The notes below the pieces were generated by a model. It saw only the letters and a program-made list of their open reading frames with translations. It was not told the origin of the DNA and did no database searches. A stretch of 64,000 bases of DNA. It comes from Candidatus Hadarchaeum sp. (GTDB lineage Archaea; Hadarchaeota; Hadarchaeia; Hadarchaeales; Hadarchaeaceae). Shown one piece after another: positions 19,331 through 58,363 of the stretch; position 1 is the stretch's first letter; the number at the start of each line of letters is the position of its first letter. The translations under genes and the position numbers were made by a program. The stretch spans positions 622 to 64,621 of the forward strand of contig DYFS01000002.1 of NCBI GenBank assembly GCA_020725055.1, read 5' to 3'.

Positions 19331-19959
19331 TCCTTCACCGCTCCGGGCTTGGTTTCAAATTCTTCAACCGAGACCCCAAAAGGCGCATCCGGCACAAGCT
19401 CCCCACGCTCCCTCAACACCTGCCGCGCCAGAAGCCAATAAACGAGCGCCAGCGCCTTTCGGCCCTTGTTGTTCGTCGGTATCACTAGGTCGATATCCGC
19501 GGTCTCGTTGTCCGTGTCGCAGAGCCCGATGACCGGTATGCCGGCCTCCGCCGCCTCGGAAACAGGCTGCGCGTCGGCGAGTGGGTCGGTCGCAACCAAG
19601 GCGTGCGGCTCCATGTACCCCTTGTAGGTGGGGTTCGTCAGCGTGCCTGGGATGAACCTGCCGGCGATCGCGATCGTCTTGGTCACCTCTCCGAACTTCA
19701 GCACCGGCTGCTGGCCGTACTGCCGGGCAGAAACCACGACCACGCGCGACGGCTCAAACTTCGCGAGGAGCTTGCCCGCCGCCCGGATGCGCTCGTCCGC
19801 CTTCCGAACGTCGAGCACGTAAAGCCCATCGGGTCTGACGCGGTAGATGAAAGGCGCCATCGCCCCCGTCTTCTGCCTCGTACCGATGTGGACGCCGCTC
19901 GACAGGTACTGGTCCATCTCCACAAGCCATTCCCTACCTTCGATTTCTCCTACTTCCAC
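19327..19959 (-). CDS. rps2: Ribosomal protein S2
   Basis: [14 protein letters not shown]...[24 protein letters not shown]. 210 aa. Confidence 0.85.
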
Positions 19960-23596: not shown

Positions 23597-23690
23597 TAAG
23601 ACTTAAAGATTGTTACAAAACAATTTTCGTCGCCGAATGCCCCTCGTGCAACTATTTAACTTTGTGAACCTTATTTTTTCGGGGGTTGAA

Positions 23691-24677
23691 ATGGAGTTGA
23701 TAACCGCCAGCGCGGGGAGTTATCCACGCATAGGTACTGCGCCTGAAAAACAACGGCTCAGGGCTGAGTACGCCCGCTTGGATAGGGGCGAGATCTCAAA
23801 GGAAGATTTCGCAAGGGTGCAGGATGAAGTGACCAAAGAAGTCATTGAGGAGCAGAGGCGCGCGGGAATTGAGCTGGCGACAGATGGGCAAGTGCGCTGG
23901 TATGACCAAATCTCCCACTTCGCTCGAAAACTCGATGGTTGTGAAATCAACGGTCTGCTCAGGCTGTTCGACACCAACTTCTATTTCCGCCAACCCGTGA
24001 TAAAAGGCAATGTTAGATGGGCCGCCCCAATAGTCGTCGGTGAATTTAAGTTTGCCAAAAAAGTTTCACCCATCCCAATCAAGCCCGTCGTGACCGGCCC
24101 TTACACGCTCGCCAGGCACTCTATCGACAAACACTACCACGATTTTTCGTCGCTCGTCGCTGATTTTGTCGTCGCGATTGGTAAAGAGGTGAATGCGTTG
24201 GCAAAAGCCGGAGCTGAGGTAATTCAGCTGGACGAACCTTCCATTCTGAAAAACCCTCAAGAGTTCAAAATTTTTGAGAGCGCGGTCGGAGAGGTCAGCA
24301 AAAACAAGGGGAAAGCGCGGTTGGCACTCTACACGTATTTTGGAGACGCCGCAAAGCTGTACGACAAGTTGCAAAGCCTCCCCATCGACATCCTTGGGCT
24401 GGACTTCAGCTACAGCCAAAAATTGGCGGCCGTCATCGAAGGCATGGGCTCCGAGAAAGAACTCGGGCTCGGGCTCGTCGACGGAAGAAACACGCGAATA
24501 GAAAACGTGAAGGAAACCGCGAAGGTTGTTGCAAAAATTCTGAAAAAGCTAGATGTTGATCGGGTTTACCTGAACCCATCATGCGGGCTCGACGAATACC
24601 TGCCGCGAGAGGTGGCGTTCGAGAAATTGAAAAACCTAGTCGCGATAGCCAAGCAGGTGAGGGCGGAGATGAAATGA
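23691..24677 (+). CDS. MetE N-terminal-domain-like protein (non-catalytic paralogue of cobalamin-independent methionine synthase)
   Basis: About 329 aa from MELITASAGSYPRIG. It has the UroD/MetE fold pattern (VVTGPYTL, NPSCGLD) but lacks the full His/Cys zinc set seen in the downstream gene. The 4-nt ATGA overlap with that gene suggests translational coupling. Confidence 0.5.
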   Translation: MELITASAGSYPRIGTAPEKQRLRAEYARLDRGEISKEDFARVQDEVTKEVIEEQRRAGIELATDGQVRWYDQISHFARKLDGCEINGLLRLFDTNFYFRQPVIKGNVRWAAPIVVGEFKFAKKVSPIPIKPVVTGPYTLARHSIDKHYHDFSSLVADFVVAIGKEVNALAKAGAEVIQLDEPSILKNPQEFKIFESAVGEVSKNKGKARLALYTYFGDAAKLYDKLQSLPIDILGLDFSYSQKLAAVIEGMGSEKELGLGLVDGRNTRIENVKETAKVVAKILKKLDVDRVYLNPSCGLDEYLPREVAFEKLKNLVAIAKQVRAEMK

Positions 24678-25681
24678 GGGAGAAACTCGAGTCGCTGGGA
24701 TTGGACCTGCCCCTGCTCCCGACGACGACCGTTGGTAGCTTCCCGAAGCCCAGGGAAGTGATGGAGGCCAGACAGAAACTCTTGGCTGGCAAGCTGACGA
24801 AGAAGGACCTGCGACCGCTAGAGGAGCAGGCGACGCGCTTCTGGATAAAGACGCAGGAGGAAATCGGGATCGATGTGTTGGTCGATGGCGAGATGTACCG
24901 CGGCGACATGGCCACGTACTTCGCTGAAAACCTCGATGGCTTCAAGATAAGCGGGCTCGTGCGCAGCTACGGCAACCGCTACTATCGAAAACCAATCATC
25001 TCCGGCAAGGTCAAGTGGCGCGGCCCCATCACCGTCGATTGGTGGAAGTTCGCACAGAGCCTGACGAAAAAACCGGTCAAAGGGATGCTCACGGGGCCGT
25101 ACACGATGATGGACTGGTCTTTCAACGAGTACTACCCGAACCGCCGAGAAGCCTGTCTCGATATGGCCCGCGCGTTGCACGAGGAGGTGAAGGCGCTCGC
25201 CGACGCTGGGGCCAAGATAATCCAAGTAGACGAGCCGGCTCTCTCGGCAAGGTCTGAGGAACTGGACGACTTCATCATCAAGGCGCTCGACATCGTCACA
25301 AAAGGCGTCGGCGCTTACTTCATCACCCACTCCTGCTACGGCGCGTTCGAGTTCATCTACCCGGACATGCTGAAGCTGCCCGTTGATAACTTTGACTTGG
25401 AGATGTCGAACTCCGAGCTCGACTTGGTTGAGATTTTTAGGCGCCACCCGTTCACAAAGGATATTTCATTCGGCGTGGTCGACGTTCACTCCCACGTGAT
25501 CGAGGATGTCGAAACTGTGAAGAAGCGAATCAAACGCGCGCTAGAGGTTTTGAAACCAGAGCAGCTCTGGGTAGACCCGGACTGCGGGCTCAAAACGCGG
25601 ACCCGGGAAGAAGCAATCGGAAAACTCCGGGCGATGGTGGGTGCAGCCGAAGAGGTAAGAAAATCGCTGAGCGAAAAATAG
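24674..25681 (+). CDS. metE: Cobalamin-independent methionine synthase, archaeal short form (MetE C-terminal catalytic domain)
   Basis: LPTTTVGSFPKP, ITHSCYGAF and DPDCGLKTRT provide the His/Cys/Cys zinc ligands. 335 aa. Confidence 0.75.
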   Translation: MREKLESLGLDLPLLPTTTVGSFPKPREVMEARQKLLAGKLTKKDLRPLEEQATRFWIKTQEEIGIDVLVDGEMYRGDMATYFAENLDGFKISGLVRSYGNRYYRKPIISGKVKWRGPITVDWWKFAQSLTKKPVKGMLTGPYTMMDWSFNEYYPNRREACLDMARALHEEVKALADAGAKIIQVDEPALSARSEELDDFIIKALDIVTKGVGAYFITHSCYGAFEFIYPDMLKLPVDNFDLEMSNSELDLVEIFRRHPFTKDISFGVVDVHSHVIEDVETVKKRIKRALEVLKPEQLWVDPDCGLKTRTREEAIGKLRAMVGAAEEVRKSLSEK

Positions 25682-29858: not shown

Positions 29859-29870
29859 TTCCTCCCTCCA

Positions 29871-29889
29871 ATGACTCTTGTAGAGTCAT
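29871..29889. promoter_or_regulatory. Perfect palindrome ATGACTCT-TGT-AGAGTCAT in the leader of the wHTH regulator gene. It is a candidate autoregulatory operator.
   Basis: An 8-bp inverted repeat sits 13-31 nt upstream of the ATG at 29858. A second AGAGTCA half-site lies near 29955, and a TTTAAATA TATA-like box lies near 29921-29933. Confidence 0.35.
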
Positions 29890-30105
29890 TTCTACCTTAC
29901 TTATGAGTAATTCTAGTATTTAAACCTTATCCTGAGTAATAAAATAACTCATTAAGAGTCAAAAAGGGATATAACCTACGTGTTCTTAGCTTATCGACAT
30001 TACTTTATACAAGGTAACTAGCCCACTCGATGGGGGTAGATTGGCGCAAGATTGCAAAGCAGGGGACCGTTGTCTTTAGATTGTTACTCTACAAGAGTAT
30101 TTTCA

Positions 30106-30603
30106 TTATCCAGGCCGCAATCCGGTGGCTTCTGCCCAGATATCATCTACCTTTTTTAAAAGTTTTTTTGCTAATTCTTGAATTTTTTGAGGTTTTTCTG
30201 CAATTAAATTAGTTAATTCTCCCCTAATCGATGTTAAATACTTAGATATGGCGTTTTTATCCATCTGCTCCCTCAAACGGCCTTTAATCTCTCGTTCAAA
30301 AAGTCTCTCTAGTTCTAGCTCTAATTCGGACAATTTTGCCATATAAAAGAGGTTTTCAATAATATCAGCCGTTTCTATGCCTAATTCTGTAAGTTTTACG
30401 AATTTAACTCTCCCAATCTCATCAAAACTGACTAATTTTAGCTCATTTAGTTTAAAAATCACATTTAAAGTGTGTGCATACGTGCTATCTATCTTTTTTG
30501 AAATTATTGCCGGATATAATGGTTTATTTTCCTTTTTTAAAGTTAAAAGTACTTTTACAGGCTTTTCTTGCAATAGCAACGATTTTAAGTCGTTTTTTAC
30601 CAT
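30106..30603 (-). CDS. AT-rich gene encoding a winged-helix DNA-binding protein with a C-terminal coiled coil
   Basis: The start is assigned to MVKNDLKSLL at 30603 because GGGGTGGTGAT lies immediately upstream. The longer ORF-track extension lacks such a site. LYPAIISKKIDSTYAHTLNVIFKLNELKLVSFDEIGRVKFVKLTELG is a wHTH pattern. GC is well below the window average. Confidence 0.45.
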   Translation of the reverse strand: MVKNDLKSLLLQEKPVKVLLTLKKENKPLYPAIISKKIDSTYAHTLNVIFKLNELKLVSFDEIGRVKFVKLTELGIETADIIENLFYMAKLSELELELERLFEREIKGRLREQMDKNAISKYLTSIRGELTNLIAEKPQKIQELAKKLLKKVDDIWAEATGLRPG

Positions 30604-30760
30604 ATCACCACCCCTGCGTTTTAAATCTCGATCCTCCATCCTTATAAATGTATCGTTTGATAAATTTATTTTAGTGTATATACACTTTATTAAATTCTTT
30701 ATAGTGAAGTTGTGAAAATGTCGAATCCAAAAATATGGGCGGCGCAAAAAAAAAGGAGGG

Positions 30761-47874: not shown

Positions 47875-49068
47875 CTAGCCGATTTTATTCATGAACTCCT
47901 CGATCCTGTCCATCCCTTTCGCAATATTCTCCATCGAGGTAGCATACGAGAGCCTTAGGTGGTTGTCATCGCCGAAGACAGCCCCTGGAACCACAGCTAC
48001 TCTGGACTCTGTGAGGAGCAGCTCGGTCAACGAAATCGAGTCTTTGATCGTTTGCCCCCCATGCCTCTTACCCAAGATTTGCGACACGTCTGGAAAAGCG
48101 TAGAAAGCACCTTCCGGCATGAGGCAACTGATCCCCCGGATGGAATTCAGCCTCTCCACGATATAGTTTCTCCTCTCTGCAAACGCTCGAACCATCTCCC
48201 CCGCGCTCTCCTGCGGGCCTTCTAGGGCTTCCAAAGCGGCTTTTTGGCTGATCGATGTTGGATTCGAAGTGGAGTGATCTTGCAGGTTGGACATCACCTG
48301 GATTATCTCCCTCGGGCCCGCGGCGTAGCCAATCCGCCAACCGGTCATGGAATAGGATTTGGAGACGCCGTTCACCACGATGGTCAACCCCTTCATCTCT
48401 GGATTCAGGGAAGCGATGCTGACGTGCTCTCTGCCATCGTAGATGATTTTTTCATAAATTTCGTCGGAGATGCAGCAGATCCCGGCCTCCACCAAAATTT
48501 CGGCGAGGGGGCGCAGCTCTTCCTTGGTGTAAACCATCCCTGTTGGGTTTGAGGGGGAATTCAGGATGACGAGTTTTGTTCTCGGCGTGATTGAATCGCG
48601 CAGTTGTTCGGGCGTGATTTTGAAATTGTTTTGCTGGGTGGTTTTAATCACGACCAAGTTTGCCCCCGCGAGCTTGATCATCTCGGGGTAGCTGACCCAG
48701 TAGGGGGAAGGCAGAATCACCTCGTCACCCCCGTCACACAAGGCGAGGATTGCGTTGAAAATAGAATGTTTCGCCCCGCATGATACGAGGATCTCCTCTT
48801 GCATGTAGTCAAGGTCATTGTCCCTTTTGAGTTTTTTACAAATCGCCCTTTTTAACTCCGGGATGCCAGAGGTGGGAGTATATTTCGTGAAGCCGGCATC
48901 TACCGCTTTCTTCGCCGCTTCTTTGATGTTCGCCGGTGTATCAAAATCTGGCTCCCCCGCACCAAACCCGATGATGTCGATGCCCTTGGCCTGCATCTCC
49001 TTCGCCTTTGCCGTTATGCCCAAAGTCGGCGAGGGGGCGATTGAGCTCACCCTTTTCGAGAACCGCAT
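47875..49068 (-). CDS. Aspartate/aromatic aminotransferase (fold-type I, class I)
   Basis: NPTGMVY, GVSKSYSMTGWRIGYAAGP (PLP Lys) and FGAGEPDF motifs. 397 aa. Confidence 0.8.
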   Translation of the reverse strand: MRFSKRVSSIAPSPTLGITAKAKEMQAKGIDIIGFGAGEPDFDTPANIKEAAKKAVDAGFTKYTPTSGIPELKRAICKKLKRDNDLDYMQEEILVSCGAKHSIFNAILALCDGGDEVILPSPYWVSYPEMIKLAGANLVVIKTTQQNNFKITPEQLRDSITPRTKLVILNSPSNPTGMVYTKEELRPLAEILVEAGICCISDEIYEKIIYDGREHVSIASLNPEMKGLTIVVNGVSKSYSMTGWRIGYAAGPREIIQVMSNLQDHSTSNPTSISQKAALEALEGPQESAGEMVRAFAERRNYIVERLNSIRGISCLMPEGAFYAFPDVSQILGKRHGGQTIKDSISLTELLLTESRVAVVPGAVFGDDNHLRLSYATSMENIAKGMDRIEEFMNKIG

Positions 49069-50487: not shown

Positions 50488-50736
50488 ATGTTCTGGAAAA
50501 TACTGGGGGAATTGATGGCCAGCGGTTATTTGTCCCATCTCGAAAAGCTCGGCATTGTCAGGGCTCTCCGGTGGGATGCGGTGACTGGGCCTTCAGGCGT
50601 GCCCCTGCCCCTCAAAGCTGGCTATACGATGAATCACGCGGCCTTGCTGCTTTTCAGCGCGTTTGTTATCACCCTATTCATCTTGTACCGATTACGCTCG
50701 AGTGGTGCTAAATTCATGGTGCGAAAAACCAAGTGA
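50488..50736 (+). CDS. Possible small membrane protein. Uncertain because it overlaps the convergent small ORF at 50714-50905.
   Basis: 82 aa with a hydrophobic C-terminal helix. There is no motif support. Confidence 0.2.
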   Translation: MFWKILGELMASGYLSHLEKLGIVRALRWDAVTGPSGVPLPLKAGYTMNHAALLLFSAFVITLFILYRLRSSGAKFMVRKTK

Positions 50737-50905
50737 GCAAGAAAAACAACAACGTCAGAAGACCAGTGATGGCGTGAGCGACCCTGAGCGGTCGGTACCA
50801 TCCTTTGGGTTTCTTGAAAAATAACATGACGCCTGTTGCAGTAGCCATCAGTAGGAAAAACAGCGTTATCGTAGCAAACGTGATATGCAACTCGAGGTTG
50901 TACAT
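50714..50905 (-). CDS. Small two-TM membrane protein, start-stop adjacent to the upstream nitroreductase-like gene
   Basis: 63 aa with two clean hydrophobic helices. Its ATG abuts the stop of the upstream gene. Confidence 0.35.
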   Translation of the reverse strand: MYNLELHITFATITLFFLLMATATGVMLFFKKPKGWYRPLRVAHAITGLLTLLFFLLTWFFAP

Positions 50906-51631
50906 TTAACTCACCGGATGCCCGATCGGGATGATGTAGAGCGGCTTCTGATCTGTGGGTAACTGCAGGAGCTCTTGAACCTGATCGTCGTCGAAAGCTC
51001 CAACCACCACCATGCCAAGCCCCCTGGCCTCGGCTTGCAGGTACAGGTTCTGCCCGACGTGCCCAACCTCCATATGCACGTAGCGGATACCGCGGTCGCC
51101 ATACCTGCGCGTTGTGCGCTCGTAGACCGCCGCGATGACGATGTTAACCGGGGCTTCTCTCACACAGCTCTGCCCCAGCGCAGCATCCGCCAACCTCGAG
51201 CGCAGGTCGCCTCTCAGGACATTCTCCAGTTGGTGTTCGGAAGGATCATAGCGGTAAACGCCTTCCGCTATCCCTGTTACACCGTTGCTGCCGACGACGA
51301 TGTAGACCTCAAGCGGATAAGTAGCACCTGCAGATGGGGCTGCCCTGAACTTTCGGGCGGGATCTGTAATCCCTTGGGCCGCCCACACCAGTTGCGAGAT
51401 GTCCTGCAAACTCAAGGGCGCGTCTGTATAGCTCCTTATCGATCGCCTCCGCAGAATCGCCTCTTCGACCGACATCGGGCCAGTGGTCTCTGGGCTGGGG
51501 AGCTTCACGGTGCCAAAAGCCTTTGGGAACACATCTCCATTAGGTCTGAGCCAAACCAGGTAAACCGCGGCGAGCCCAACCAATATTGCTGTAGCCACGA
51601 TTACTGCGGTAGTCCTTTTCTTCTTGAACAT
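50906..51631 (-). CDS. Membrane-anchored nitroreductase-family (SagB-type dehydrogenase-like) protein
   Basis: N-terminal TM, then RRRSIRSYTD...QNLYLQAEARGLGMVVVGAFDD, a nitroreductase fold pattern. Confidence 0.55.
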   Translation of the reverse strand: MFKKKRTTAVIVATAILVGLAAVYLVWLRPNGDVFPKAFGTVKLPSPETTGPMSVEEAILRRRSIRSYTDAPLSLQDISQLVWAAQGITDPARKFRAAPSAGATYPLEVYIVVGSNGVTGIAEGVYRYDPSEHQLENVLRGDLRSRLADAALGQSCVREAPVNIVIAAVYERTTRRYGDRGIRYVHMEVGHVGQNLYLQAEARGLGMVVVGAFDDDQVQELLQLPTDQKPLYIIPIGHPVS

Positions 51632-51641
51632 CCGTTTACCT

Positions 51642-53033
51642 TTATGCCTTGGGTTTGAAGTAACCCCAGTGGTCTAAAACCCTTTTGAGTTCCTTATGTG
51701 TTTCGGCATATTCCTCAAGCGAAATCCTCTTCATAACCGCATCCACTGCCTGTCTCGCCGCTATCGTGCCTGCTCTACTGCCATCAGGATGTCCGTGTAT
51801 GCCACCGCCAAACTGTATGCCCACATCATTACCAAATTTTTCAACAATTTCTGGAACGAGTCCTGGGTGTAGGCCGCCAGAAGAAATAGCAAGAACTGGT
51901 TTCATGCCACACCAATTCTGCTCAAAAACTCTCTGTTCAGCATTTGGAAATTCTTTGAATTTCGGTACGAAAGCCGTTTTGACCCCTTTCGTTACTTTAG
52001 CTTCAAGCATCGCCTGACTAGCTTTAACTTCTGCTAATTCACCATGCATCTTACCAACGACTGTCCCAATATGGAATTGATCACCGCCGGCCAATCTCAC
52101 AAGTTTCGCAAGAACATTCATAGAGATCCCATGGAATCTATTTCGTGTGAAAGAAGCGTGCATGCATCTGTGCACATGAATAGGGACTTTTATCGCTCCC
52201 CTCAGTTCTTTTAGACCAGGGAATCCGCAGGTAATAACGTCCATCATTACGGCATTGGCACCCATCTCGGTTAATTCCTCAGCCCTTTCTATCATTTTTG
52301 CATTGTCATGCGTGACATTTACCGTGTAAAGCACTGTTTTGCCTGTCTCGCTTTTTGCCTTATCAAGTGCTTCCATCATTTTGCTTAATCTCCGCTCAAT
52401 TGGACATATTTTCCTTTGATCGGCAAGCGTCTCATCATCCTTTATGTGATCTATACCTCCCATAGCAACTTCGTAACCAACTTTCGCCGTAATTTTTGGC
52501 GTCAAACCCACTTTCGGCTTTATTATAGTTCCAACATGGGGTCTTCTGTATTTTGTAGTGCCGACAATCTTTCTGATGCCTTCAAGACCAAACCTTGGTC
52601 CTTTGAAACCCCTCACATATTTTTTAGGAAGCCTGATGTCGAGGAGTCTGCAGTTTTTGATTGCTTTTAAACCAAAAAGATTTCCAGCAACGACTGATAG
52701 CAATTGGGGGATATTTCCTGGTTCAAATAACTCAATAGGGAAGGCCACCATCGCATAATTTCCTTTTACATCAATAACCCTGCCAGCAAATCTCCATGCC
52801 CGTTTTGTCTCCGTCAACACATGGGTCCATGTTCCTATGCTGCTTTCAGCCGCTATCGCCGCGGCCACATTCGTTGGCGTATATCCCTCAGAGCCTTCAA
52901 CATAGTAGTAGCACACGAGCCAGTCTTCGAGGCCTATCCTCTCCCCCAATGCAAGAAATTCATTAAACTTTCTTTCTAGCTCATATGTTTCTTCTTCGTA
53001 TTCGCCAACTTGTACGACTTTTTCTTTCGGCAC
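51642..53033 (-). CDS. rbcL: Ribulose-1,5-bisphosphate carboxylase/oxygenase large subunit, archaeal type III-like
   Basis: IIKPKVGLTPK (carbamylated Lys region), GGIDHIKDDE and VGKMHGE motifs. 463 aa. No small-subunit or PRK gene is nearby. Confidence 0.8.
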   Translation of the reverse strand: MPKEKVVQVGEYEEETYELERKFNEFLALGERIGLEDWLVCYYYVEGSEGYTPTNVAAAIAAESSIGTWTHVLTETKRAWRFAGRVIDVKGNYAMVAFPIELFEPGNIPQLLSVVAGNLFGLKAIKNCRLLDIRLPKKYVRGFKGPRFGLEGIRKIVGTTKYRRPHVGTIIKPKVGLTPKITAKVGYEVAMGGIDHIKDDETLADQRKICPIERRLSKMMEALDKAKSETGKTVLYTVNVTHDNAKMIERAEELTEMGANAVMMDVITCGFPGLKELRGAIKVPIHVHRCMHASFTRNRFHGISMNVLAKLVRLAGGDQFHIGTVVGKMHGELAEVKASQAMLEAKVTKGVKTAFVPKFKEFPNAEQRVFEQNWCGMKPVLAISSGGLHPGLVPEIVEKFGNDVGIQFGGGIHGHPDGSRAGTIAARQAVDAVMKRISLEEYAETHKELKRVLDHWGYFKPKA

Positions 53034-53049
53034 TTTCGCACCTCACCCA

Positions 53050-53802
53050 TCAGACTAATTTAGGGGGATATATGCATGCACGTTCCCGCCCCCACTTCAA
53101 TTTTAGCGCTTGCGCCATCTCCATCATAACCTTAAACGGAACACGCGCTTTCACGATCGCGCTTCCGGCACCAACTCCCACCACCCCGAGGTCTAAAGCC
53201 GCTTCTACGTCTTTCCCGCTTGTGATGCCCGCACCACATACCACGTAAACCTTTGGGTTGACACGTTCGACCGCTTCGAGAGTTTTTGTGATGATCTCGG
53301 GTTTTGCTTTGGACACGGCACGTCCCGTCCCGATCAACTCTGGGTGTTCGATCAATATCATGTCTGGATTGAATCCTGCGACCGTCGCGCTTAACTCGGG
53401 ACTATCTGTACAAACGCACGAGATCAGACCGACTTCTCTGGCCCTTTTCACAGCTTTTTCGATATCATCCAATTGAAGTTTCTTCTCGGAGTGGTTGATC
53501 AGGGTTCCGGCTGCCCCCGCCTCCTTTACCGCCTCTGGGAGAACGTGTCCCGTAAAGCTTCCGGGTTTTATGGGGTCTATATGCTGCGCAAATACTTGTA
53601 CGTTGACTTGGCGGACAATCGCTGCGATATCAGTGTACTGGGGAATCGAAACTATGCTGATGCCTGTTTTTTTAGCGATTTTCTTGGCGATCTTTGCAAG
53701 TTGGAGTGCGTTTTTTCCAGTAGCTTCGGTGTATGTTTTGAACCCGACTAGAAGAAGTGGAAGACGTATTTTTTGCGCCACCATAGTTCCCACATCACCC
53801 AA
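53050..53802 (-). CDS. tpiA: Triosephosphate isomerase, archaeal short type
   Basis: LLVGFKTYTEATG...INHSEKK...IEHPELIGTG...VVCGAGI. The likely start is MVAQKIR. Confidence 0.8.
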   Translation of the reverse strand: MGDVGTMVAQKIRLPLLLVGFKTYTEATGKNALQLAKIAKKIAKKTGISIVSIPQYTDIAAIVRQVNVQVFAQHIDPIKPGSFTGHVLPEAVKEAGAAGTLINHSEKKLQLDDIEKAVKRAREVGLISCVCTDSPELSATVAGFNPDMILIEHPELIGTGRAVSKAKPEIITKTLEAVERVNPKVYVVCGAGITSGKDVEAALDLGVVGVGAGSAIVKARVPFKVMMEMAQALKLKWGRERACIYPPKLV

Positions 53803-53814
53803 AATAAGTGTGAT

Positions 53815-54798
53815 TCATGTCTTCGCTGAGATCAATTCAACTATCGCTCGATGCGTTTCGATCGGTGGTTTGACGGTATTGACGAGGTATACATCGGTCT
53901 GGTCCATGAGCCCATTGAAGAACCCCTTCCTGAGCTCCATCTTGCGCTTGTCTCTGACCAACTGGTGCGGGTTGCAGAAATCGTTCGCCAAGAGGTAATC
54001 CAGTCCTTCGTCCGAGTCGATTTTCCTCGCCAAGCTCACATCGTGTTCATCCCTCTTCAAAAGGATCACCTTCCTGAGCGTGGTCATCGGAATGACCCCA
54101 CCGCTGCCGACGATCCATCTGACGTTGACGATCGCCCGCCCTCTCTGGTCGAAGCGCGCTTTCTCGACCAGCTCCTCGTATTCCCCCCAGATTTTTCCTA
54201 TGTCGGCTTCAACGTAGGAGTTCTTTTCCGAGCCGAATGCCAGCGCTCCGCGCTCGAACATCCGAACGAAGAACCAGTCGTCCGCCACCAGCCTTGCCCC
54301 CTTGAGCCTGAGCAGGCCGAAGGAGTGCGTAGTCTTCCCCGTGCCGGCCGGAGCGATTATCGACACGCCGATTCCTTCGACATCGATCGCCGCGCCGTGG
54401 ACGTGATATATCCCATGCTCATCCTCGAGGATGTCTCCCGCCATAGCGAGCGCGATGCTTTTTATCCAGCCGTAGTAGTCGGTGCCCGTCAAAAAGGCGG
54501 TGTTCGTGTATGGGTCGTACTTCACCCTGGGTCTGTCTCCCTCCTTGAGCACGATGAGGCGGCCGTGGGAGCGGATGTTCTCGTCCATGGTGAAAAAATT
54601 GTCTTCCCAGCGATCCTTCACCTCCTCGATTTCGGTGAGCAGCTTTATGCAGCAGCCGTAGATGTTCGCCTTCCTCGTGTAGAGGTAGCGATCAGAGTAG
54701 CAATCGAAGAGTTCGGCCTTCTCCTCAGGCGTGATGACCTCGACCTCGTATTTCAAACACTCACCTTTGTCCCAAGTTTGGTATCGATTAAATAACAT
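53815..54798 (-). CDS. HprK-related (PEPCK-fold) P-loop kinase-like protein, function unknown
   Basis: A mid-protein Walker A (VSIIAPAGTGKTTHSFGLL) is followed by about 175 aa, as in the HprK C-terminal domain. The listed start overlaps the carbonic anhydrase gene by 46 nt. Confidence 0.35.
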   Translation of the reverse strand: MLFNRYQTWDKGECLKYEVEVITPEEKAELFDCYSDRYLYTRKANIYGCCIKLLTEIEEVKDRWEDNFFTMDENIRSHGRLIVLKEGDRPRVKYDPYTNTAFLTGTDYYGWIKSIALAMAGDILEDEHGIYHVHGAAIDVEGIGVSIIAPAGTGKTTHSFGLLRLKGARLVADDWFFVRMFERGALAFGSEKNSYVEADIGKIWGEYEELVEKARFDQRGRAIVNVRWIVGSGGVIPMTTLRKVILLKRDEHDVSLARKIDSDEGLDYLLANDFCNPHQLVRDKRKMELRKGFFNGLMDQTDVYLVNTVKPPIETHRAIVELISAKT

Positions 54799-55118
54799 TT
54801 AACTTTCATTTGGGGAAACGTTTCGGAGAGAAACTTTTTGACGTGTTTGAGGTCGGAGAGGTAGTGAGTTTGTTCATCCTGACCGAGCTGTTTGTAAAAT
54901 CCGCAATCGGTGTGGTTGGTGAGGATAATTTTGTTTGCGCCGAATCCCTTTGCGAGAATGTTGATTTGCTCAACAAGGTTGGATAATTCATCCCGCACTA
55001 AAAAATATTTGATGCTGCCAGTATTGGCGATGACTGAGTATTCTTTTTCCACGTCCAGGAGCTCGTCAACCGCTTTGTTGATTCTGGGGTCTGAGCAGCG
55101 GATCAATATTGTTATCAT
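54753..55118 (-). CDS. Minimal beta-class carbonic anhydrase (Cab-type), 122 aa
   Basis: LIRCSDPRI (CxDxR), VIANTGSI and ILTNHTDCGF (HxxC) align in order with the Cab-type zinc ligands. GGAGG lies 7 nt upstream of the ATG at 55118. The gene is AT-rich. Confidence 0.55.
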   Translation of the reverse strand: MITILIRCSDPRINKAVDELLDVEKEYSVIANTGSIKYFLVRDELSNLVEQINILAKGFGANKIILTNHTDCGFYKQLGQDEQTHYLSDLKHVKKFLSETFPQMKVKCYLIDTKLGTKVSV

Positions 55119-56155
55119 CCACTTGCCTCCACCGCTGCTGAAGCAGGTTGAGGAACTTCGCGCGCCCGCCTCCTTCTGACCAAGACGTACGCGACACACA
55201 CCATTACCGCCGCCATCGCAATACCAACGTAAAACAAGGGAATAGGTTCTTCGGCAAACAGATTTCTACCCTCGGCATTCGCTGGAGCTCGGAGCCCAAA
55301 CAGCGCGGTTACTGTAGGCGCTACGTCGATTATTTTGCCGCCCTCAAATTTGCCTACTCGAACCCCTGGGCCTGAAAAAATCAGCAGGATGCTCATGTCG
55401 CCAGGATCTTGAGAGCCATGGTCGGTTCCGGTCATACCATGGTCGGAGACGATGACGAGCAGCGTGTTCTCATAAATACCCAACCCCTTCAAGTTGTCAA
55501 CGAGCATCCCGATTGCTTGATCCGCCCTCTCGATGGCTTGCAAGTAATTGTGGCTGGTGTGCGAGTAGATGTGGCCAGTAACATCGACTACTGGTAGCAA
55601 GATAAACATCAATGTGGGTTGATTCTCTACAAAGATCTGAATCGCATTCTCCATCACGCGGATGTCGCCATTCGGGTCCTCGTACCCGGGCTGATATACT
55701 GCCCCATTTCTCCACCGGTAGTCAACGTTGTTTTTCACGTAACTCACGCCCACTTCCAATCCAGCTATCCTGCCCCCCTTGCCATCCACGAGAGCTGTTT
55801 TGTAGCCGGCTCCCTCGAAGACTTGAAATATCGTCTCGGTCTCCAACCTACTGCCAGGGCCTGTATACCGATGTACACCCGGCAAAGCCCCCGTGAACAA
55901 CGACGCGTGAGCCTGGGGAGTTTTGGACGGGTAAACCGTTTGCGCGCTCCAGCTGTATGCCGCGTCTTGTACTATCTCATCGATGTTCGGAGTACTGGCC
56001 TCAAGTAGGCTATCGGGCCTGCAGCCATCGATTGTGACGATGATCACATAAATGGGTCGCTCTGGTCGTGCTGTGGCACCAACAGCAACCGCTGGGACAA
56101 ATAACACGAAGAGAGCGATGAAAATACCTGAAATTATCAGAACTTTACGCATCAC
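55115..56155 (-). CDS. Alkaline-phosphatase-superfamily ectoenzyme (type I phosphodiesterase/nucleotide pyrophosphatase-like) with an N-terminal signal and a C-terminal TM anchor
   Basis: IVTIDGCRPD and VSDHGM metal-site motifs. Hydrophobic segments at both termini. Confidence 0.55.
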   Translation of the reverse strand: MMRKVLIISGIFIALFVLFVPAVAVGATARPERPIYVIIVTIDGCRPDSLLEASTPNIDEIVQDAAYSWSAQTVYPSKTPQAHASLFTGALPGVHRYTGPGSRLETETIFQVFEGAGYKTALVDGKGGRIAGLEVGVSYVKNNVDYRWRNGAVYQPGYEDPNGDIRVMENAIQIFVENQPTLMFILLPVVDVTGHIYSHTSHNYLQAIERADQAIGMLVDNLKGLGIYENTLLVIVSDHGMTGTDHGSQDPGDMSILLIFSGPGVRVGKFEGGKIIDVAPTVTALFGLRAPANAEGRNLFAEEPIPLFYVGIAMAAVMVCVAYVLVRRRRAREVPQPASAAVEASG

Positions 56156-56173
56156 ACCATGCTCCCCTGGCCC

Positions 56174-57820
56174 TTAACCGAGCGAACCCCGCATCTTGCC
56201 GAGCTTCGAAAGCAGGTCACGTGCGAGGGGGTCGAGCTTCGCGAGCTCCATCGCTGGCAACGTTTCAGCCTTGCCGCGCATTATGCTCAGGTAGGGTTCG
56301 ACGATGCTCACCATGGAGCCATAGCTCGGATCTGGTTCGAATTCTAGGCCGAGGAGCTCGCGGATTAAATCGATGTCCTCGGTCACGTCGCGGATGACCT
56401 CTTGAGGTAAGAAGTGCCCAGCTTTCTTCAGATCGAGAAAACGCCCGGCGAACTCTAGGTCGGCAGGCAAGCTCGGATAGTACTCCTTCAGCAATACTTC
56501 AAACACGTCCTTGTTTTTCTGACTCAATTCCAGCAAACCGCGCCCCGTGCCCACGAACTCAGGCGGCAGACACGCTGTGTAAAGCGAGCCGGTATAGCCA
56601 ATTGCACGTGGCAGCTCAAGGTCTTCTCCCTTTAGCTCGACCAGCTGCTTTGCGAGGTCTGTTTCTCCAGCCAGTGGTTTACACAGCTCGGCTAACTCAC
56701 GGGTCTGCGGTCCCCAGCGGGCGTAGCCAGCTTTGCCCGCGCGAACGAGTCTATCCCTTTGCTGGGGCAGGATATCCGAGATCTGTTTCACCGCAGGGGC
56801 AACGCGCATTAGGGTTGAGATGTAGTGCTTTGCGAACACGCCACATATGTAAAATACGTGCTGCCGTTGTTCCCCGGTGTAAGACAAGGGGCGCCCCTTC
56901 GGCAACTCTTGACGTAGGATTTTCACCAATTGTCTCGCTTTTTCTAGCTCATGGTCGTAACGGATGCCGGATTGAACTGTTATCGTGCGGACGCCGCAAT
57001 ACTCACGCAACACATTCTGGATGTTTTCAACCGTTACGTGTCCTCGGAACGGTAGCGCGCCGCCGCCGAATATAGGCGCCACGGGTACCCCCTCCTCCGC
57101 CCCGAATACGTAGGCATCCGCTATCGCAAGCTTGCACGCCATAACGGAGGCGATCTGACCGTACATTAGGGCTGAGTCCGACTTGCCGACGAAGACGCGT
57201 AGGTAGGGTATCTGCACACCAAGTTCGCTTCTGCACCCATGAGTATACTCAGCGAGCATTTTGCGGATGGATAGCTGTTGTGGCACCTCCTCGACCAAAG
57301 GGATTAACTCGATCGCTTGGCGGGTGGCCTCGCCGCCTGCAGCCCTCGCTAACCCTTCCATGGCAATTATCCGCTGACGGACCTCAACCAGCTCTGCGCC
57401 CGTCATCGTCATCGGATGTACCACCTCTATGACGCTCGCGCCAATGTGACGGGTGCGGTAGTTCGCTTCGACGGCAGCGAGTATCGACGCATACTGCCTA
57501 AAAATAGTTTCTTTCTCGGCGCTGGGCACCCGGGGCGTGATGAACACGTCGCGTCCGGGGACCAGCTTGAGTTCGTCGAGCAATTTGGTCGCGATATTCG
57601 CCACTTGGTGGTAGGGTGTCATTTTGCCCTCGTAGTCGACCATATACTCATCGCAGCCCAATCCAGCATCCTGCGGGGCCAGGCACTGTAGCGCTTCGAT
57701 TTCCTCGTCCTGCACAGGCACGTATCGCGACGCCGAGTCTGGGTGCTGTGTGGCCATGGCGCACGGGACGCGGGCACCGCGGCGTTCAACGAGTTTGCCC
57801 ATTTCTCCCACGCTTATCAC
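56174..57820 (-). CDS. ppcA: Phosphoenolpyruvate carboxylase, archaeal type
   Basis: 548 aa. N-terminal CAMATQHPDS plus overall size matches archaeal-type PEPC. Confidence 0.7.
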   Translation of the reverse strand: MISVGEMGKLVERRGARVPCAMATQHPDSASRYVPVQDEEIEALQCLAPQDAGLGCDEYMVDYEGKMTPYHQVANIATKLLDELKLVPGRDVFITPRVPSAEKETIFRQYASILAAVEANYRTRHIGASVIEVVHPMTMTGAELVEVRQRIIAMEGLARAAGGEATRQAIELIPLVEEVPQQLSIRKMLAEYTHGCRSELGVQIPYLRVFVGKSDSALMYGQIASVMACKLAIADAYVFGAEEGVPVAPIFGGGALPFRGHVTVENIQNVLREYCGVRTITVQSGIRYDHELEKARQLVKILRQELPKGRPLSYTGEQRQHVFYICGVFAKHYISTLMRVAPAVKQISDILPQQRDRLVRAGKAGYARWGPQTRELAELCKPLAGETDLAKQLVELKGEDLELPRAIGYTGSLYTACLPPEFVGTGRGLLELSQKNKDVFEVLLKEYYPSLPADLEFAGRFLDLKKAGHFLPQEVIRDVTEDIDLIRELLGLEFEPDPSYGSMVSIVEPYLSIMRGKAETLPAMELAKLDPLARDLLSKLGKMRGSLG

Positions 57821-57865
57821 CCCAATTACTAAAACGTTAAGCTTTTAAGCATTTTCGTTAACAAA

Positions 57866-58363
57866 ATGTTAAGGATAAGAATGAAGAAGTTGGACAAAGA
57901 AATACTGCTTCAACTGATAGAAGACAGCGAGCAACCCACATATCAAATAGCAAAAAAAGTCGGGACCACCAGGCAAACCGTCGCCAAAAAAATCGCTCAA
58001 TTCAAAGAAGCAGGGATAATCAGTTCATTCGTACCCAAGCTGAATCCGGAGAAGTTCGGCCTAGCCACGAAGGCATATGTGTTTCTACGTGAGGATCCGC
58101 GAACAGAGCTCAGAAGGAAAAACGAGGATGCCATCAAGAAGTTTCACGAGGTCTCCGGGTTCTACCGCCTCTTCGGCAGATACAGCGCAATCCTAGAAGT
58201 CAGGGTGAGGGGCAGCAAGGAGCTGACAAACCTGGTTAAGCGAATCCATGGCCTGAGGGGGGTGAGGGAAACCGAGACATTCATAGTTCACAGCTCGGTG
58301 AAAGACATGCCCGAGGCGCCATTTGTGCAAATTTTGAAATTAGGAGCTAAAACACCCGGCTAG
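57866..58363 (+). CDS. Lrp/AsnC-family transcriptional regulator
   Basis: An N-terminal HTH (LDKEILLQLIEDSEQPTYQIAKKVGTTRQTVAKKI) is followed by a RAM domain. Confidence 0.8.
   Translation: MLRIRMKKLDKEILLQLIEDSEQPTYQIAKKVGTTRQTVAKKIAQFKEAGIISSFVPKLNPEKFGLATKAYVFLREDPRTELRRKNEDAIKKFHEVSGFYRLFGRYSAILEVRVRGSKELTNLVKRIHGLRGVRETETFIVHSSVKDMPEAPFVQILKLGAKTPG

Follow-up and report, generated by a model that had tools for sequence, protein, structure and literature searches.

Organization of the locus

In the window analysed here, a stretch of 64 000 nucleotides from Candidatus Hadarchaeum sp., six tightly packed genes occupy the minus strand between positions 51642 and 57820. ORF listing and profile scans agree with the initial annotation, which had placed six co-oriented genes, two of them carboxylases, at these coordinates. 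The cluster and its flanking features are as follows.

57866..58363, plus strand: Lrp/AsnC-family transcription regulator, divergent from PEPC (Pfam AsnC_trans_reg and HTH_24)
57821..57865, no strand: short, AT-rich divergent intergenic region, a putative shared promoter/operator
56174..57820, minus strand: archaeal-type PEP carboxylase (PEPC; PF14010, 367 bits; TIGR02751 equivalog)
55115..56155, minus strand: NPP/alkaline-phosphatase-superfamily phosphodiesterase (PDE; Pfam Phosphodiest, 96 bits)
54753..55118, minus strand: beta-carbonic-anhydrase-like (CA-like) protein, 121 aa (Pfam Pro_CA_2, PF20393; longer ORF 54753-55199)
53815..54756, minus strand: predicted mini-PEPCK-like P-loop phosphotransferase, 313 aa (longest ORF 53815-54798)
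53050..53802, minus strand: archaeal triose-phosphate isomerase (TIM; PF00121, 122 bits; NF003302, 291 bits)
51642..53033, minus strand: form III-type RuBisCO large subunit (RuBisCO_large, 269 bits; NF003252)
50906..51631, minus strand: SagB-type nitroreductase-family protein (PF00881, 122 bits; TIGR03605, 143 bits)
50714..50905, minus strand: hydrophobic ORF, 63 aa, abutting the nitroreductase gene; may not be a gene

Neighbouring genes in the cluster either overlap by 4 nt (ATGA or TTGA) or are separated by 10-21 nt, and GGTGA/GGAGG-type motifs precede most of the internal starts. From this spacing we infer that the six-gene region is co-transcribed as one operon. PEPC and the regulator are 45 bp apart; with the alternative PEPC start, ATG 57802, the distance grows to 63 bp. 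For TIM, a check for Shine-Dalgarno-like motifs makes ATG 53784, with GGTGAT upstream, the more likely start. The nitroreductase gene begins after a 10-nt gap behind RuBisCO and is possibly co-transcribed with the cluster; no such gene was seen downstream of the cluster on any relative's contig. The 63-aa ORF has GGTGA 5 nt upstream and a Kyte-Doolittle maximum of 2.07.

The PEPC, a consumer of HCO3-, scores 401.7 bits against TIGR02751 (cut-off 146). An enolase gene lies in the same window at 19950-21215. Residues 1-31 and 303-328 of the PDE form hydrophobic segments, and the protein carries the motifs DGCR43, T79PQAH, D191VTGH and D238HG; together with the Phosphodiest match these fit its earlier description as an ecto-phosphodiesterase-like enzyme, and the protein is probably membrane-anchored and extracytoplasmic.

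The CA-like and kinase genes had both been described as AT-richer than their neighbours. This holds for the CA-like gene (GC 0.46) but not for the kinase gene, whose GC of 0.55 and GC3 of 0.76 are typical for the window (0.549). The compositional outlier is the RuBisCO gene, with a GC of 0.445 and a GC3 of 0.405.

Conservation of the cluster in related lineages

We compared four lineages: the window, L005/L006, L105/L106 and L110. Each has the Lrp/AsnC regulator divergently adjoining PEPC. From there the window reads PEPC-PDE-CA-miniPEPCK-TIM-RuBisCO, L005 reads PEPC-CA-miniPEPCK-RuBisCO-TIM, L105/L106 reads PEPC-PDE-CA-TIM-RuBisCO, and L110 reads PEPC-CA-RuBisCO. The conserved core thus consists of the regulator (66-72% identity), PEPC (82-89% between the window and the three related lineages), the 121-aa CA-like protein (67-80%) and a form III-type RuBisCO, whereas TIM, the mini-PEPCK gene and the PDE gene are each found in some lineages and missing from others. 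The PDE gene, present in the window and L105/L106 and absent from L005 and L110, is a lineage-specific insertion. The PEPC-CA-RuBisCO core can do without the mini-PEPCK gene, since the L105/L106 and L110 operons lack it and are equivalent in other respects.

None of the four lineages recovered separates PEPC, the CA-like gene and RuBisCO from one another, so the CO2/bicarbonate theme proposed for this neighbourhood is not due to chance. Unrelated housekeeping genes could lie side by side by accident, with no functional meaning, and the coming and going of PDE, mini-PEPCK and TIM would suit such a view, as would the fairly close relationship of the four lineages, in which shared order could partly be inheritance. 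We nevertheless regard this as very unlikely: the core has outlasted rearrangements, one gene insertion and a swap to a RuBisCO xenologue of 47% identity, neighbours share 4-nt start/stop codon overlaps, and the pairing of mini-PEPCK with RuBisCO arises again independently in Hadarchaeia.

Type and origin of the RuBisCO

The initial annotation called this enzyme a type III RuBisCO. All eight of the eight catalytic and substrate motifs checked are present, and the best solved relatives (6hun, 2cwx and 3a13) are single-subunit 'ribulose bisphosphate carboxylase' entries that we take to be archaeal form III enzymes. The score exceeds the cut-off of NF003252 (451.5 bits against 438), but that of the type III model TIGR03326 is not reached (451 bits against 497).

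RuBisCO encoded on contigs with a GC content of 33%, one of which is labelled Pacearchaeota, shares 80-81% identity with this protein. The enzyme from L005, the operon of the nearest relative, shares only 47%, and compared with it the window's RuBisCO carries an insertion of ~20 residues. Because of this disparity and its outlying composition, we consider it a form III-type enzyme of a DPANN-associated clade that was probably acquired laterally. A low-GC DPANN-type xenologue appears to have taken the place of the ancestral RuBisCO with which the mini-PEPCK gene was coupled.

Like the Thermococcus kodakarensis-type form III enzymes (3a13, 6hun; E 1e-94 to 1e-99) of the AMP/pentose-bisphosphate pathway, it consists of a large subunit only and has all catalytic motifs. 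Unlike them, it belongs to a small clade with low-GC DPANN-type genomes and lies not beside deoA/e2b2 but beside TIM, PEPC and the CA-like gene. A Pfam scan of 30 further window ORFs of at least 253 aa revealed neither PRK nor a DeoA-type phosphorylase nor an IF-2B-type isomerase; as noted before, the route to the RuBisCO substrate is thus not evident among the window ORFs scanned. Within 10 kb of two annotated Hadarchaeia loci, PRK, DeoA and e2b2 were likewise not found.

A small beta-carbonic-anhydrase-like protein

Read from ATG 55118, the CA-like protein is 121 aa long; the ATG has GGTGGAGG upstream and overlaps the stop codon of the preceding PDE gene as ATGA. It contains the motifs C8-x-D10-x-R12 and H69-x-x-C72. 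C8, D10, H69 and C72 do not vary across 18 homologues, of which at least 90% also keep R12; an N-x-G motif is conserved as well. In the Pfam scan the protein scores 29.4 bits against PF20393, just below the cut-off of 30, and the classical Pro_CA model gives no match. A literature search found nothing on PF20393.

The profile of the family matches PDB 1g5c, which we take to be Methanobacterium Cab, as its best solved structure (E 0.005). In the alignment with Cab that had been proposed as a check, the Cys/Asp/Arg and His/Cys residues line up on 1g5c, as do the N-x-G motif and the final beta-strand. The earlier description of a minimal Cab-type carbonic anhydrase is therefore upheld for the zinc-ligand and Asp-Arg motifs but not for the family: Cab belongs to PF00484, while this protein falls in the separate, uncharacterised PF20393. 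It is also shorter (121 aa against 170 aa), lacking an N-terminal arm of ~27 residues and an internal segment of ~30 residues.

These missing segments, a score just short of the threshold for a family whose very name says only 'putative', and the presence of CS2 hydrolase and COS hydrolase among the weak PDB matches would suit a zinc enzyme of the beta-CA fold with another activity, for instance hydrolysis of COS or CS2, or a zinc protein with no catalytic role. So would the varied neighbours of more distant homologues, which include ATP synthase, an MFS transporter and squalene-hopene cyclase. We find this unlikely, though it retains appreciable weight, because the zinc ligands, Asp-Arg dyad and N-x-G motif are all conserved and the best solved match is itself a carbonic anhydrase. 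Furthermore, the gene always adjoins that of the bicarbonate-using PEPC in close relatives, and a more distant homologue sits between purC and purE (PurE is another carboxylase). Some homologues have signal-peptide-like N-termini; periplasmic carbonic anhydrases carry signal peptides too.

A half-size relative of PEPCK

The 46-nt overlap previously described between the kinase gene and the end of the CA-like gene arises only from the longest kinase ORF (start 54798) and disappears with the start that we consider most likely from sequence comparison, TTG 54756. Homologues begin at the position of L15 of the longest ORF, a GGTGA Shine-Dalgarno-like motif lies upstream of this TTG, and it overlaps the CA stop by 4 nt as TTGA, a junction that is identical in L005.

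The protein had been called HprK-like, within the HprK/PEPCK fold. The fold is confirmed, since hhalign and Foldseek (TM-score 0.64-0.76, normalised to the query) place it on PEPCK, but the architecture is that of PEPCK rather than HprK. Although it shows only a weak match to the NCBIfam PEPCK model (E 3e-5) and does not reach the threshold of Pfam PEPCK_ATP (PF01293), it aligns to PckA residues 92-469 with both PEPCK domains present. Aligned conserved sites are Y207, K212/K213, H232, the GTGKTT P-loop, D268/D269, E282/Y286, R333 and the LVNT adenine site. Within the family (alignment 24-82% identical), K99, H120, G140-K141, D160-W161 and E177 are invariant.

Compared with PckA (PF01293; PDB 1ii2, 2pc9, 1aq2), the P-loop is identical, and the other motifs correspond as DYYGxIKS/WYGGEMKK, VHGA/SMHCSA, DDW/DDEH, SEKNxY/FEGGCYAK, Arg/R333 and VNT/LVNTGW, with the mini-PEPCK given first. 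The position of PckA S250 varies (A, S or P). The mini-PEPCK is shorter, with 313 aa against about 510-540 aa: it has large deletions in the nucleotide-binding domain, the C-terminal 70 residues are missing, and E. coli PckA residues 1-91, Arg65 included, have no counterpart. We conclude that it is a complete but minimal, half-size PEPCK fold.

A protein kinase/phosphorylase like HprK/P (PF07475), regulating RuBisCO, iPGM or another enzyme of central metabolism, would explain why HprK models are matched in Pfam (Hpr_kinase_C, 34.6 bits against a cut-off of 33.3, residues 132-186 only) and NCBIfam, and why the signature segment of HprK lines up with the GRAxVNV motif; the variable gene partners could be its targets. 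However, the sequence match is confined to residues ~120-190 and the structural match to the C-terminal 135-153 residues, while the N-terminal domain and the DYYGxxKS motif are PEPCK-like. None of the loci showed an HPr or PTS gene, and the identity of 62-84% across Hadarchaeia, Bathyarchaeia and some Methanomassiliicoccales, with all PEPCK-type small-molecule and metal motifs kept, would be more typical of a metabolic enzyme. We thus judge a regulatory kinase improbable.

Gene partners and proposed function of the mini-PEPCK

A literature search found nothing on this family. The window's gene is closest to those of Hadarchaeia, where the mini-PEPCK gene directly follows RuBisCO on the same strand, with a gap of 9-33 nt, in 22 of 27 loci, even where the paired RuBisCOs are only ~50% identical among themselves. 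The link between RuBisCO and this kinase-like protein is real and much stronger than the window alone shows. The two genes overlap by 4 nt in L005, and three contigs of one Hadarchaeales species have the mini-PEPCK gene without an adjacent RuBisCO. In Bathyarchaeia the family is near-ubiquitous; the gene precedes that of archaeal phosphoglycerate mutase (iPGM) in 33 of 46 loci (median 78 nt), and no RuBisCO was found within 10 kb. Homoserine dehydrogenase lies upstream in all five Methanomassiliicoccales/Thermoplasmata loci. In three distant cluster representatives (E 1e-14 to 1e-23) an aspartate-aminotransferase-like domain, scoring below equivalog cut-offs, is fused to the mini-PEPCK module. 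In the window and in L005 the gene belongs to the same operon as PEPC.

RuBisCO and iPGM lie on the PEP/3-PGA side of metabolism, and PEPC, homoserine dehydrogenase and the aminotransferase fusions on the oxaloacetate/aspartate side. The partners iPGM, homoserine dehydrogenase and the aminotransferase-like domain suggest chemistry on C3/C4 acids around the PEP/oxaloacetate node, not the sugar-phosphate kinase considered in the initial annotation. Our best reading is that of a putative minimal phosphotransferase of the PEPCK type, placed where 3-PGA, PEP and oxaloacetate meet. In E. coli PckA, Arg65 binds substrate and CO2; with its segment absent, a defining feature of PEPCK is lacking and a true carboxykinase reaction is uncertain. 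Co-expression of PEPC and a PEPCK would also create an ATP-wasting cycle unless regulated, and the tight pairing in Hadarchaeia equally fits an enzyme acting directly on the substrate or product of RuBisCO.

A PEPCK-fold small-molecule kinase with a different C3 substrate is the less probable reading, but a substantial one. Such an enzyme could be a pyruvate-kinase-like PEP/pyruvate phosphotransferase, a glycerate 2-kinase, a non-homologous phosphoglycerate kinase, or a 2- or 3-phosphoglycerate kinase forming 2,3-bisphosphoglycerate. 3-Phosphoglycerate is common to RuBisCO and iPGM, the two commonest partners; the gene precedes TIM in the window, resembling the bacterial order gap-pgk-tpi-pgm-eno; absence of the segment that binds CO2 and the distal carboxylate in PckA fits a substrate without a C4 carboxylate; and the retained Mn2+-ligand motifs suit a chelate formed by a 2-oxo or 2-hydroxy acid. 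This reading would, however, leave the PEPC operon, homoserine dehydrogenase and the aminotransferase-like fusions unexplained.

A non-homologous kinase making the RuBisCO substrate (ribulose-1,5-bisphosphate or ribose-1,5-bisphosphate) would account for the close pairing with divergent RuBisCOs, the overlap in L005 and the failure to find PRK, DeoA and e2b2 in the places searched; published MAG surveys also describe some RuBisCO-bearing archaea without detectable PRK (PMC6783470). Yet the iPGM-coupled family is widespread in Bathyarchaeia away from RuBisCO, the L105/L106 and L110 operons hold RuBisCO without it, and the Hadarchaeales contigs hold it without an adjacent RuBisCO. The PEPCK-type Mn2+ site, moreover, is built for carboxylic acids. 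We consider such a kinase highly improbable.

A proposed carboxylase module

Taken as a whole, the locus is best explained, with slightly less than even confidence, as one carboxylase operon with a mini-PEPCK at the PEP/oxaloacetate node and a RuBisCO xenologue. The CA-like protein would equilibrate CO2 and HCO3-, supplying HCO3- to PEPC and CO2 to RuBisCO. From ribulose-1,5-bisphosphate, made by enzymes encoded outside the window, RuBisCO would form two 3-phosphoglycerates. Phosphoglycerate mutase and enolase would then yield PEP, and PEPC would carboxylate PEP to oxaloacetate. The mini-PEPCK may catalyse a phosphoryl transfer that depends on ATP and Mn2+ and acts at the C2 oxygen of a 2-oxo or 2-hydroxy acid of the C3/C4 size, most likely PEP + CO2 + ADP <-> oxaloacetate + ATP, and TIM would provide the link with triose phosphates and gluconeogenesis.

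C4/CAM plants and cbb-type operons combine carbonic anhydrase, PEPC and RuBisCO, and PEPCK-type C4 plants add PEPCK. As a functional analogy, the window would unite the same trio of CO2/HCO3- equilibration and PEP and RuBP carboxylation, accompanied by a PEPCK-type enzyme. In contrast to those systems, its components all come from different, archaeal families and lie in a single operon of a presumably anaerobic heterotroph, in which neither a concentrating cycle nor PRK is evident. An uncultured archaeon would thus hold two CO2-fixing enzymes, RuBisCO and PEPC, together with a tiny CA-like protein and a half-size PEPCK relative in one operon, and this uncharacterised PEPCK relative adjoins RuBisCO in many other archaea.

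Organization of the gene cluster

A listing of open reading frames (ORFs) combined with family scans bore out the six co-oriented minus-strand genes described in the initial annotation. They are given below with the genes on either side.

Genes of the cluster and its flanks (window coordinates)
57866-58363, divergent from PEPC with 45-63 bp between them: Lrp/AsnC regulator
56174-57820, minus strand: archaeal PEP carboxylase (PEPC); TIGR02751, 401.7 bits against a cut-off of 146, residues 18-548 covered
55115-56155, minus strand: alkaline-phosphatase/NPP-type phosphodiesterase (PDE); Pfam Phosphodiest PF01663, 96 bits
inside ORF 54753-55199, minus strand: small beta-carbonic-anhydrase-like (CA-like) protein
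ORF 53815-54798, minus strand: P-loop 'kinase'
53050-53802, minus strand: archaeal TIM
51642-53033, minus strand: RuBisCO large subunit
50906-51631, 10-nt gap after RuBisCO: SagB-type 'peptide dehydrogenase'/nitroreductase-family gene

The PEPC match is full length and above the equivalog cut-off. The nitroreductase-family gene encodes a probable N-terminal membrane anchor and is abutted by a 63-aa hydrophobic ORF; both may lie on the same transcript as the RuBisCO cluster. The remainder of the window is plainly archaeal, with genes for aIF2-gamma, aIF5B, GatDE, the mevalonate pathway, an H+-pyrophosphatase and enolase (19950-21215). It also holds two adjacent, partly overlapping half-size paralogues of cobalamin-independent methionine synthase (MetE-type; 23610-25681) and, at 29860-30760, about 900 bp at 28-39% GC with no convincing gene. 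This AT-rich segment, in a window of 54.9% mean GC, carries a 13-nt perfect inverted repeat (29874 and 30086) and a 16-nt T-rich repeat in three copies, with a switch in the sign of the GC skew near 30700. A replication origin is one possibility, a regulatory or mobile remnant another.

For the CA-like gene the start is ATG 55118, preceded by GGTGGAGG and giving a protein of 121 aa; this ATG and the PDE stop codon overlap as ATGA. The 46-nt overlap between the kinase and CA-like genes noted initially turned out to be an artefact of choosing the most upstream ATG. Nearly all kinase homologues begin at Leu15, whose codon (TTG 54756) is preceded by GGTGA and overlaps the CA-like stop codon as TTGA, and the closest relative has an identical TTGA junction. 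Motifs of the GGTGA/GGAGG type lie 4-9 nt 5' of the preferred start in most internal genes, those before the PDE and nitroreductase starts being weaker, and the intergenic gaps in the cluster measure 10-21 nt. This tight spacing, together with the overlaps, is the anatomy of a predicted translationally coupled operon. A scan for sigma-70 promoters and terminators, a type of scan not applicable to archaea, gave fewer sites than shuffled sequence, and the Rfam and tRNA scans returned no match. The kinase gene had been described as AT-rich, but its 55% GC (GC3 0.76) is that of the window; the CA-like gene is at 46% GC, and the compositional outlier is the RuBisCO gene (44.5% GC, GC3 0.405).

Conservation of the cluster in relatives

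Contigs with close homologues of the cluster's genes provided three further arrangements, in which the proteins are 82-89% (PEPC), 74-79% (TIM), 67-80% (CA-like) and 83% (kinase) identical to those of the window.

Gene orders in relatives (CA, CA-like gene; the gene before the semicolon is the divergent regulator)
L005: AsnC; PEPC - CA - kinase - RuBisCO - TIM
L105/L106: AsnC; PEPC - PDE - CA - TIM - RuBisCO, kinase gene absent
L110: AsnC; PEPC - CA - RuBisCO

The invariant core is the regulator, PEPC, the CA-like gene and RuBisCO. Its retention across the window lineage and all three further arrangements supports the view, put forward in the initial annotation, that this is an inorganic-carbon neighbourhood. 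The PDE is an insertion, found in just two of the four lineages. Because its NPP-type motifs are intact (D43, T79, D191/H195, D238/H239) and it has hydrophobic segments at both the N and C terminus, it is probably an ecto-enzyme, with a topology taken from hydropathy alone. We found no description of a PEPC/Pro_CA_2/RuBisCO operon in the searchable literature.

A minimal PEPCK fold in the P-loop protein

The protein had been called an HprK-like P-loop kinase, and this holds for about 55 residues around the P-loop, which are all that Pfam and NCBIfam recognize as such: the HprK C-terminal model is matched at profile positions 8-61 of 171, and TIGR00679 scores 32 bits against a cut-off of 240. 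The architecture as a whole is that of a minimal PEPCK, and we refer to the protein (313 aa, 53815-54756) as mini-PEPCK. The Pfam scan gave no match to the PEPCK model PF01293, and for NF006821 the score is 22.9 bits (cut-off 369). Homologues are abundant. There were more than 2,200 matches, the best 120 of them 66-84% identical, and in species-representative genomes homologues at 62-78% identity came from Hadarchaeia, Bathyarchaeia and some Methanomassiliicoccales/Thermoplasmata. An exhaustive profile search yielded 315 cluster representatives, diverged full-length members included.

An AF2 model built from a shallow 17-sequence alignment was unusable (pLDDT 60) and was replaced by an AlphaFold model from a diverse 30-sequence alignment, with pLDDT 95 and pTM 0.91. 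The latter contains the two-domain PEPCK fold, an N-terminal domain followed by the P-loop nucleotide domain. All of the top 50 Foldseek matches were PEPCKs; their query-normalised TM-scores range from 0.64 to 0.76.

Structural comparison of the mini-PEPCK model (score; residues aligned)
ATP-PEPCK (1ii2): 28.9; 296 of 313
GTP-PEPCK (9e32): 23.4; 301
PPi-PEPCK (8e1u): 17.0; 294
HprK/P (four entries): 14.2-14.8; 135-153

With hhalign, 308 columns of the family aligned to residues 92-469 of Escherichia coli PckA (probability 91.8%, E 7e-7), and the active-site motifs correspond as follows.

Motifs of E. coli PckA and their mini-PEPCK counterparts
WY207GGEMK212K213: DYYGxIKS
SMH232CSA: VHGA
GTGKTT (P-loop): identical
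D268D269EH: DDW
FE282GGCY286AK: SEKNxY
R333: conserved Arg
LVNTGW: VNT

Thus the Lys, His and Asp that are the Mn2+ ligands of PckA (K213, H232, D269), the P-loop and R333 all have counterparts. In the 30-sequence alignment (24-82% identity), K99, H120, G140-K141, D160-W161 and E177 are invariant down to 24% identity, and at least 90% of the sequences have R207. A protein kinase like HprK/P is therefore improbable in our view, since the N-terminal domain is of PEPCK type and the metal-ligand and substrate-binding motifs are preserved; the match to HprK around the P-loop speaks for it. No HPr or PTS genes were present in the approximately 90 loci examined.

There are also marked differences from PckA. 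The first 91 residues of PckA, with the TGRSPKDK motif and its Arg65, have no equivalent in mini-PEPCK, which is also shorter by about 100 residues in the nucleotide domain and by 70 at the C terminus. In PEPCK, Arg65 is a ligand of substrate and CO2. An RSHGR motif is invariant in the core mini-PEPCK family, but it aligns elsewhere than the Arg65 motif. Mini-PEPCK would thus work like a PEPCK-type phosphotransferase, yet it lacks one defining PEPCK feature, and classing it among the orthologues of PckA would be inappropriate. We came across no description of a half-size PEPCK-like family in the searchable literature.

Two unusual homologues were set aside. P0290 (899 aa; L102:6001-8700, also L103 and L104), a type of protein found on three assemblies, has an N-terminal mini-PEPCK-like domain fused to a complete ATP-PEPCK (PEPCK_ATP), whose motifs DYYGEAKKG and TATGKTTHS resemble those of the mini family. 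We rejected this fusion as a Rosetta-stone link: its mini-domain has lost the P-loop (ENDIAT for GTGKTT) and the His, is probably a pseudo-enzyme domain and has the look of a tandem duplicate that has degenerated. The low-complexity extensions of P0259 (555 aa) resemble a mis-called ORF.

Gene neighbourhoods of the mini-PEPCK family

We collected 85 loci of 20 kb bearing the gene, and grouped the 84 outside the window's lineage by the label in the record title. In 22 of 27 Hadarchaeia loci, a RuBisCO gene ends 9-33 nt upstream of mini-PEPCK on the same strand, in the order L18e-L13-S9-RpoN-RuBisCO-miniPEPCK. The five exceptions comprise three contigs of a single species, in which mini-PEPCK directly follows rpoN, and two contigs whose upstream sequence is too short. 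These RuBisCOs differ among themselves by up to 50%, which means that the two genes have stayed paired while RuBisCO itself diverged widely or was replaced. Two of the loci (L108:7267-10948 and L109:6164-10939) have RuBisCO and mini-PEPCK directly behind the ribosomal-protein/RNA-polymerase cluster, a position held in many archaea by rpoK, enolase and S2. This placement suggests constitutive, high expression.

No RuBisCO was found within 10 kb of mini-PEPCK in the 46 Bathyarchaeia loci. Here the gene is followed on the same strand by an archaeal cofactor-independent phosphoglycerate mutase (iPGM) in 33 of the 46 (median distance 78 nt), a phosphoglycerate mutase lies within 10 kb in seven more, and phosphoglucomutase, PfkB kinase and glycosyltransferase genes are often nearby. 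In Methanomassiliicoccales/Thermoplasmata, a homoserine dehydrogenase gene lies upstream in all five loci, with a gap of 60-90 nt in four. Three distant representatives from the representative library (E 1e-14 to 1e-23; P0319, P0328 and P0392, 740-785 aa) have an aspartate-aminotransferase-like domain fused to the mini-PEPCK module. There are also relatives of about 550 aa (P0313, P0354, P0375) with no Pfam match, and several families within the PEPCK/HprK superfamily seem to be undescribed. In the searchable literature we found no description of the synteny of mini-PEPCK with RuBisCO as a gene pair, nor of that with iPGM.

The partners of mini-PEPCK flank a single metabolic node. RuBisCO, iPGM and TIM belong to its 3-PGA, 2-PGA and PEP side, whereas PEPC, homoserine dehydrogenase and the aspartate-aminotransferase-like fusion belong to its oxaloacetate and aspartate side. 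Interconversion of PEP and oxaloacetate is the one activity that would reach both and also fit the fold, so we rank this putative function first, with at most moderate confidence. A different C3-acid kinase (pyruvate-kinase-like, a glycerate 2-kinase, a 2,3-BPG-forming kinase or a PGK analogue) is possible, if on the unlikely side; it would accommodate the missing Arg65 segment, and RuBisCO and iPGM have 3-PGA in common.

The initial annotation had suggested a missing sugar-phosphate kinase. The Hadarchaeia pairing, and the PRK gaps reported in archaeal MAGs (PMC6783470), would fit a kinase that makes the RuBisCO substrate, but the Bathyarchaeia loci, the operons with RuBisCO and no mini-PEPCK, and the fold itself all argue against it and make it very unlikely. 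Equally drawn from the 22 Hadarchaeia gene pairs is the doubtful idea of a dedicated archaeal RuBisCO partner, a non-homologous kinase that would make ribulose- or ribose-1,5-bisphosphate, or process the RuBisCO product, in an unrecognised pathway. If true, it would supply what is missing in archaea with RuBisCO and without a recognisable PRK.

The small carbonic-anhydrase-like protein

In Pfam, the CA-like protein matches PF20393 alone (Pro_CA_2, putative carbonic anhydrase), where its 29.4 bits fall just under the cut-off of 30. A word-indexed search found 18 homologues, all of 120-138 aa, which share C8, D10, H69, C72 and the N32-x-G34 motif without exception; at least 90% of them also have R12. 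The family profile matches the beta-carbonic anhydrase Cab (1g5c, E 0.005) and Rv1284; CxDxR, HxxC and the last strand align with Cab. A comparison with E. coli Can aligned the same motifs at an hhalign probability of 3.8%, too weak for use. The proposal of a minimal beta-carbonic anhydrase therefore stands as regards the Cys, His and Cys zinc ligands and the Asp-Arg dyad, all of which occupy the Cab columns. It does not extend to the classical family model, since the Pfam scan gave no match to PF00484, or to the full-length architecture: compared with Cab, the protein lacks the N-terminal arm (about 27 residues) and about 30 internal residues, and is some 50 residues shorter overall.

A role in CO2/HCO3- metabolism is supported by gene context. 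In close relatives the CA-like gene always follows PEPC, and at L007:3404-5331 and L008, from an unrelated lineage, a Pro_CA_2 homologue is flanked by purC (SAICAR synthase) and purE (AIR carboxylase), which is a second, independent association with a carboxylase (PurE). An archaeal FBP aldolase/phosphatase gene follows these three genes. More distant homologues have varied contexts and some have signal-peptide-like N termini; two with such extensions (L095:2167-2634, L096:1419-1910) adjoin squalene-hopene cyclase genes and are presumably bacterial, exported versions. No members or biochemistry of PF20393 turned up in the literature searched. The carboxylase context makes a 121-aa minimal carbonic anhydrase plausible, and is the first contextual support that we found for Pro_CA_2 proteins serving carboxylases.

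Origin of the RuBisCO

The window RuBisCO passes the general large-subunit model NF003252 (451.5 bits, cut-off 438) and scores 451 bits against the cut-off of 497 for the type III equivalog. Among solved structures it is best matched by the single-subunit entries 6hun, 2cwx and 3a13, which we take to be archaeal form III enzymes. We checked the equivalents of spinach E60, N123, K175, K177, K201, D203, E204, H294, R295, H327, K334, S379, G381, G403 and G404. Because all eight catalytic and substrate-binding motif blocks are present (positions 63, 117, 172, 198, 286, 321, 385 and 409), the protein is a predicted bona fide carboxylase, not a RuBisCO-like protein. As the initial annotation stated, PRK, a DeoA-type (AMP) phosphorylase and an IF-2B-type (R15P) isomerase are absent from the window ORFs scanned, 38 in all, including the cluster and every ORF of at least 250 aa (30 of them, 253 aa or longer, outside the cluster).

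This RuBisCO belongs to a small clade (63-90% identity) beyond which identity falls to 53% or less. Clade members at 80-81% identity are on contigs of 33% GC, one of which is labelled Pacearchaeota and has its RuBisCO among ordinary housekeeping genes. The RuBisCO of L005 is 47-50% identical to that of the window and the rest of the operon 80-86%; its gene, at a GC of 0.524, is near the locus value of 0.517. All this points to lateral acquisition, and the simplest history would be that a DPANN-type xenologue replaced the ancestral RuBisCO in the window's lineage and has since partly ameliorated in composition. Form III RuBisCO is documented to have moved laterally among DPANN, CPR and other archaea (PMC6389311); for replacement within an operon, we found no description in the searchable literature.

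The RuBisCO homologue of this nearest relative (L005:11307-12746) overlaps the mini-PEPCK gene by 4 nt. It has KPNVG in place of KPKVG, so that the equivalent of catalytic K177 is Asn, an altered E60-region motif (AEQSTGTW) and additional residues at both termini. Instead of a standard carboxylase, this may be a variant enzyme or a RuBisCO-like one.

A proposed inorganic-carbon module

Taking PEP/oxaloacetate interconversion as the role of mini-PEPCK, the genes can be arranged in a tentative scheme. The CA-like protein would keep CO2 and HCO3- in equilibrium, and PEPC would turn HCO3- into oxaloacetate that feeds the aspartate family and an incomplete TCA cycle; at a distance of 2.5 kb there is a gene of aspartate-aminotransferase type (47875-49068). 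RuBisCO would convert CO2 and RuBP, the latter from a nucleotide/pentose route encoded elsewhere, to 3-PGA, which could reach PEP via iPGM and enolase. Mini-PEPCK would provide the ATP-linked counter-reaction at the PEP/oxaloacetate node, either gluconeogenic from oxaloacetate or conserving energy from PEP, and TIM would provide the link to triose phosphates. For control of the module, the obvious candidate is the Lrp/AsnC regulator. More speculatively, the ecto-phosphodiesterase could free extracellular nucleotides, which would fit a nucleotide-fed RuBisCO.

The components of the cluster all come from known superfamilies. The metabolic wiring of RuBisCO in non-autotrophic archaea is only partly understood, and many RuBisCO-bearing MAGs have no recognisable substrate route. 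The putative replacement of RuBisCO by a DPANN-type xenologue in a conserved operon would be a further instance of the lateral mobility already known for form III RuBisCO. Mini-PEPCK represents a widespread, highly conserved and unannotated family, labelled 'hypothetical' or 'HPr kinase' in databases, with a minimal PEPCK fold and genomic coupling to RuBisCO, phosphoglycerate mutase and PEPC. Among known PEPCK-type enzymes it may be the smallest. If it is a real carboxykinase, four of the six genes in this cluster would handle inorganic carbon.
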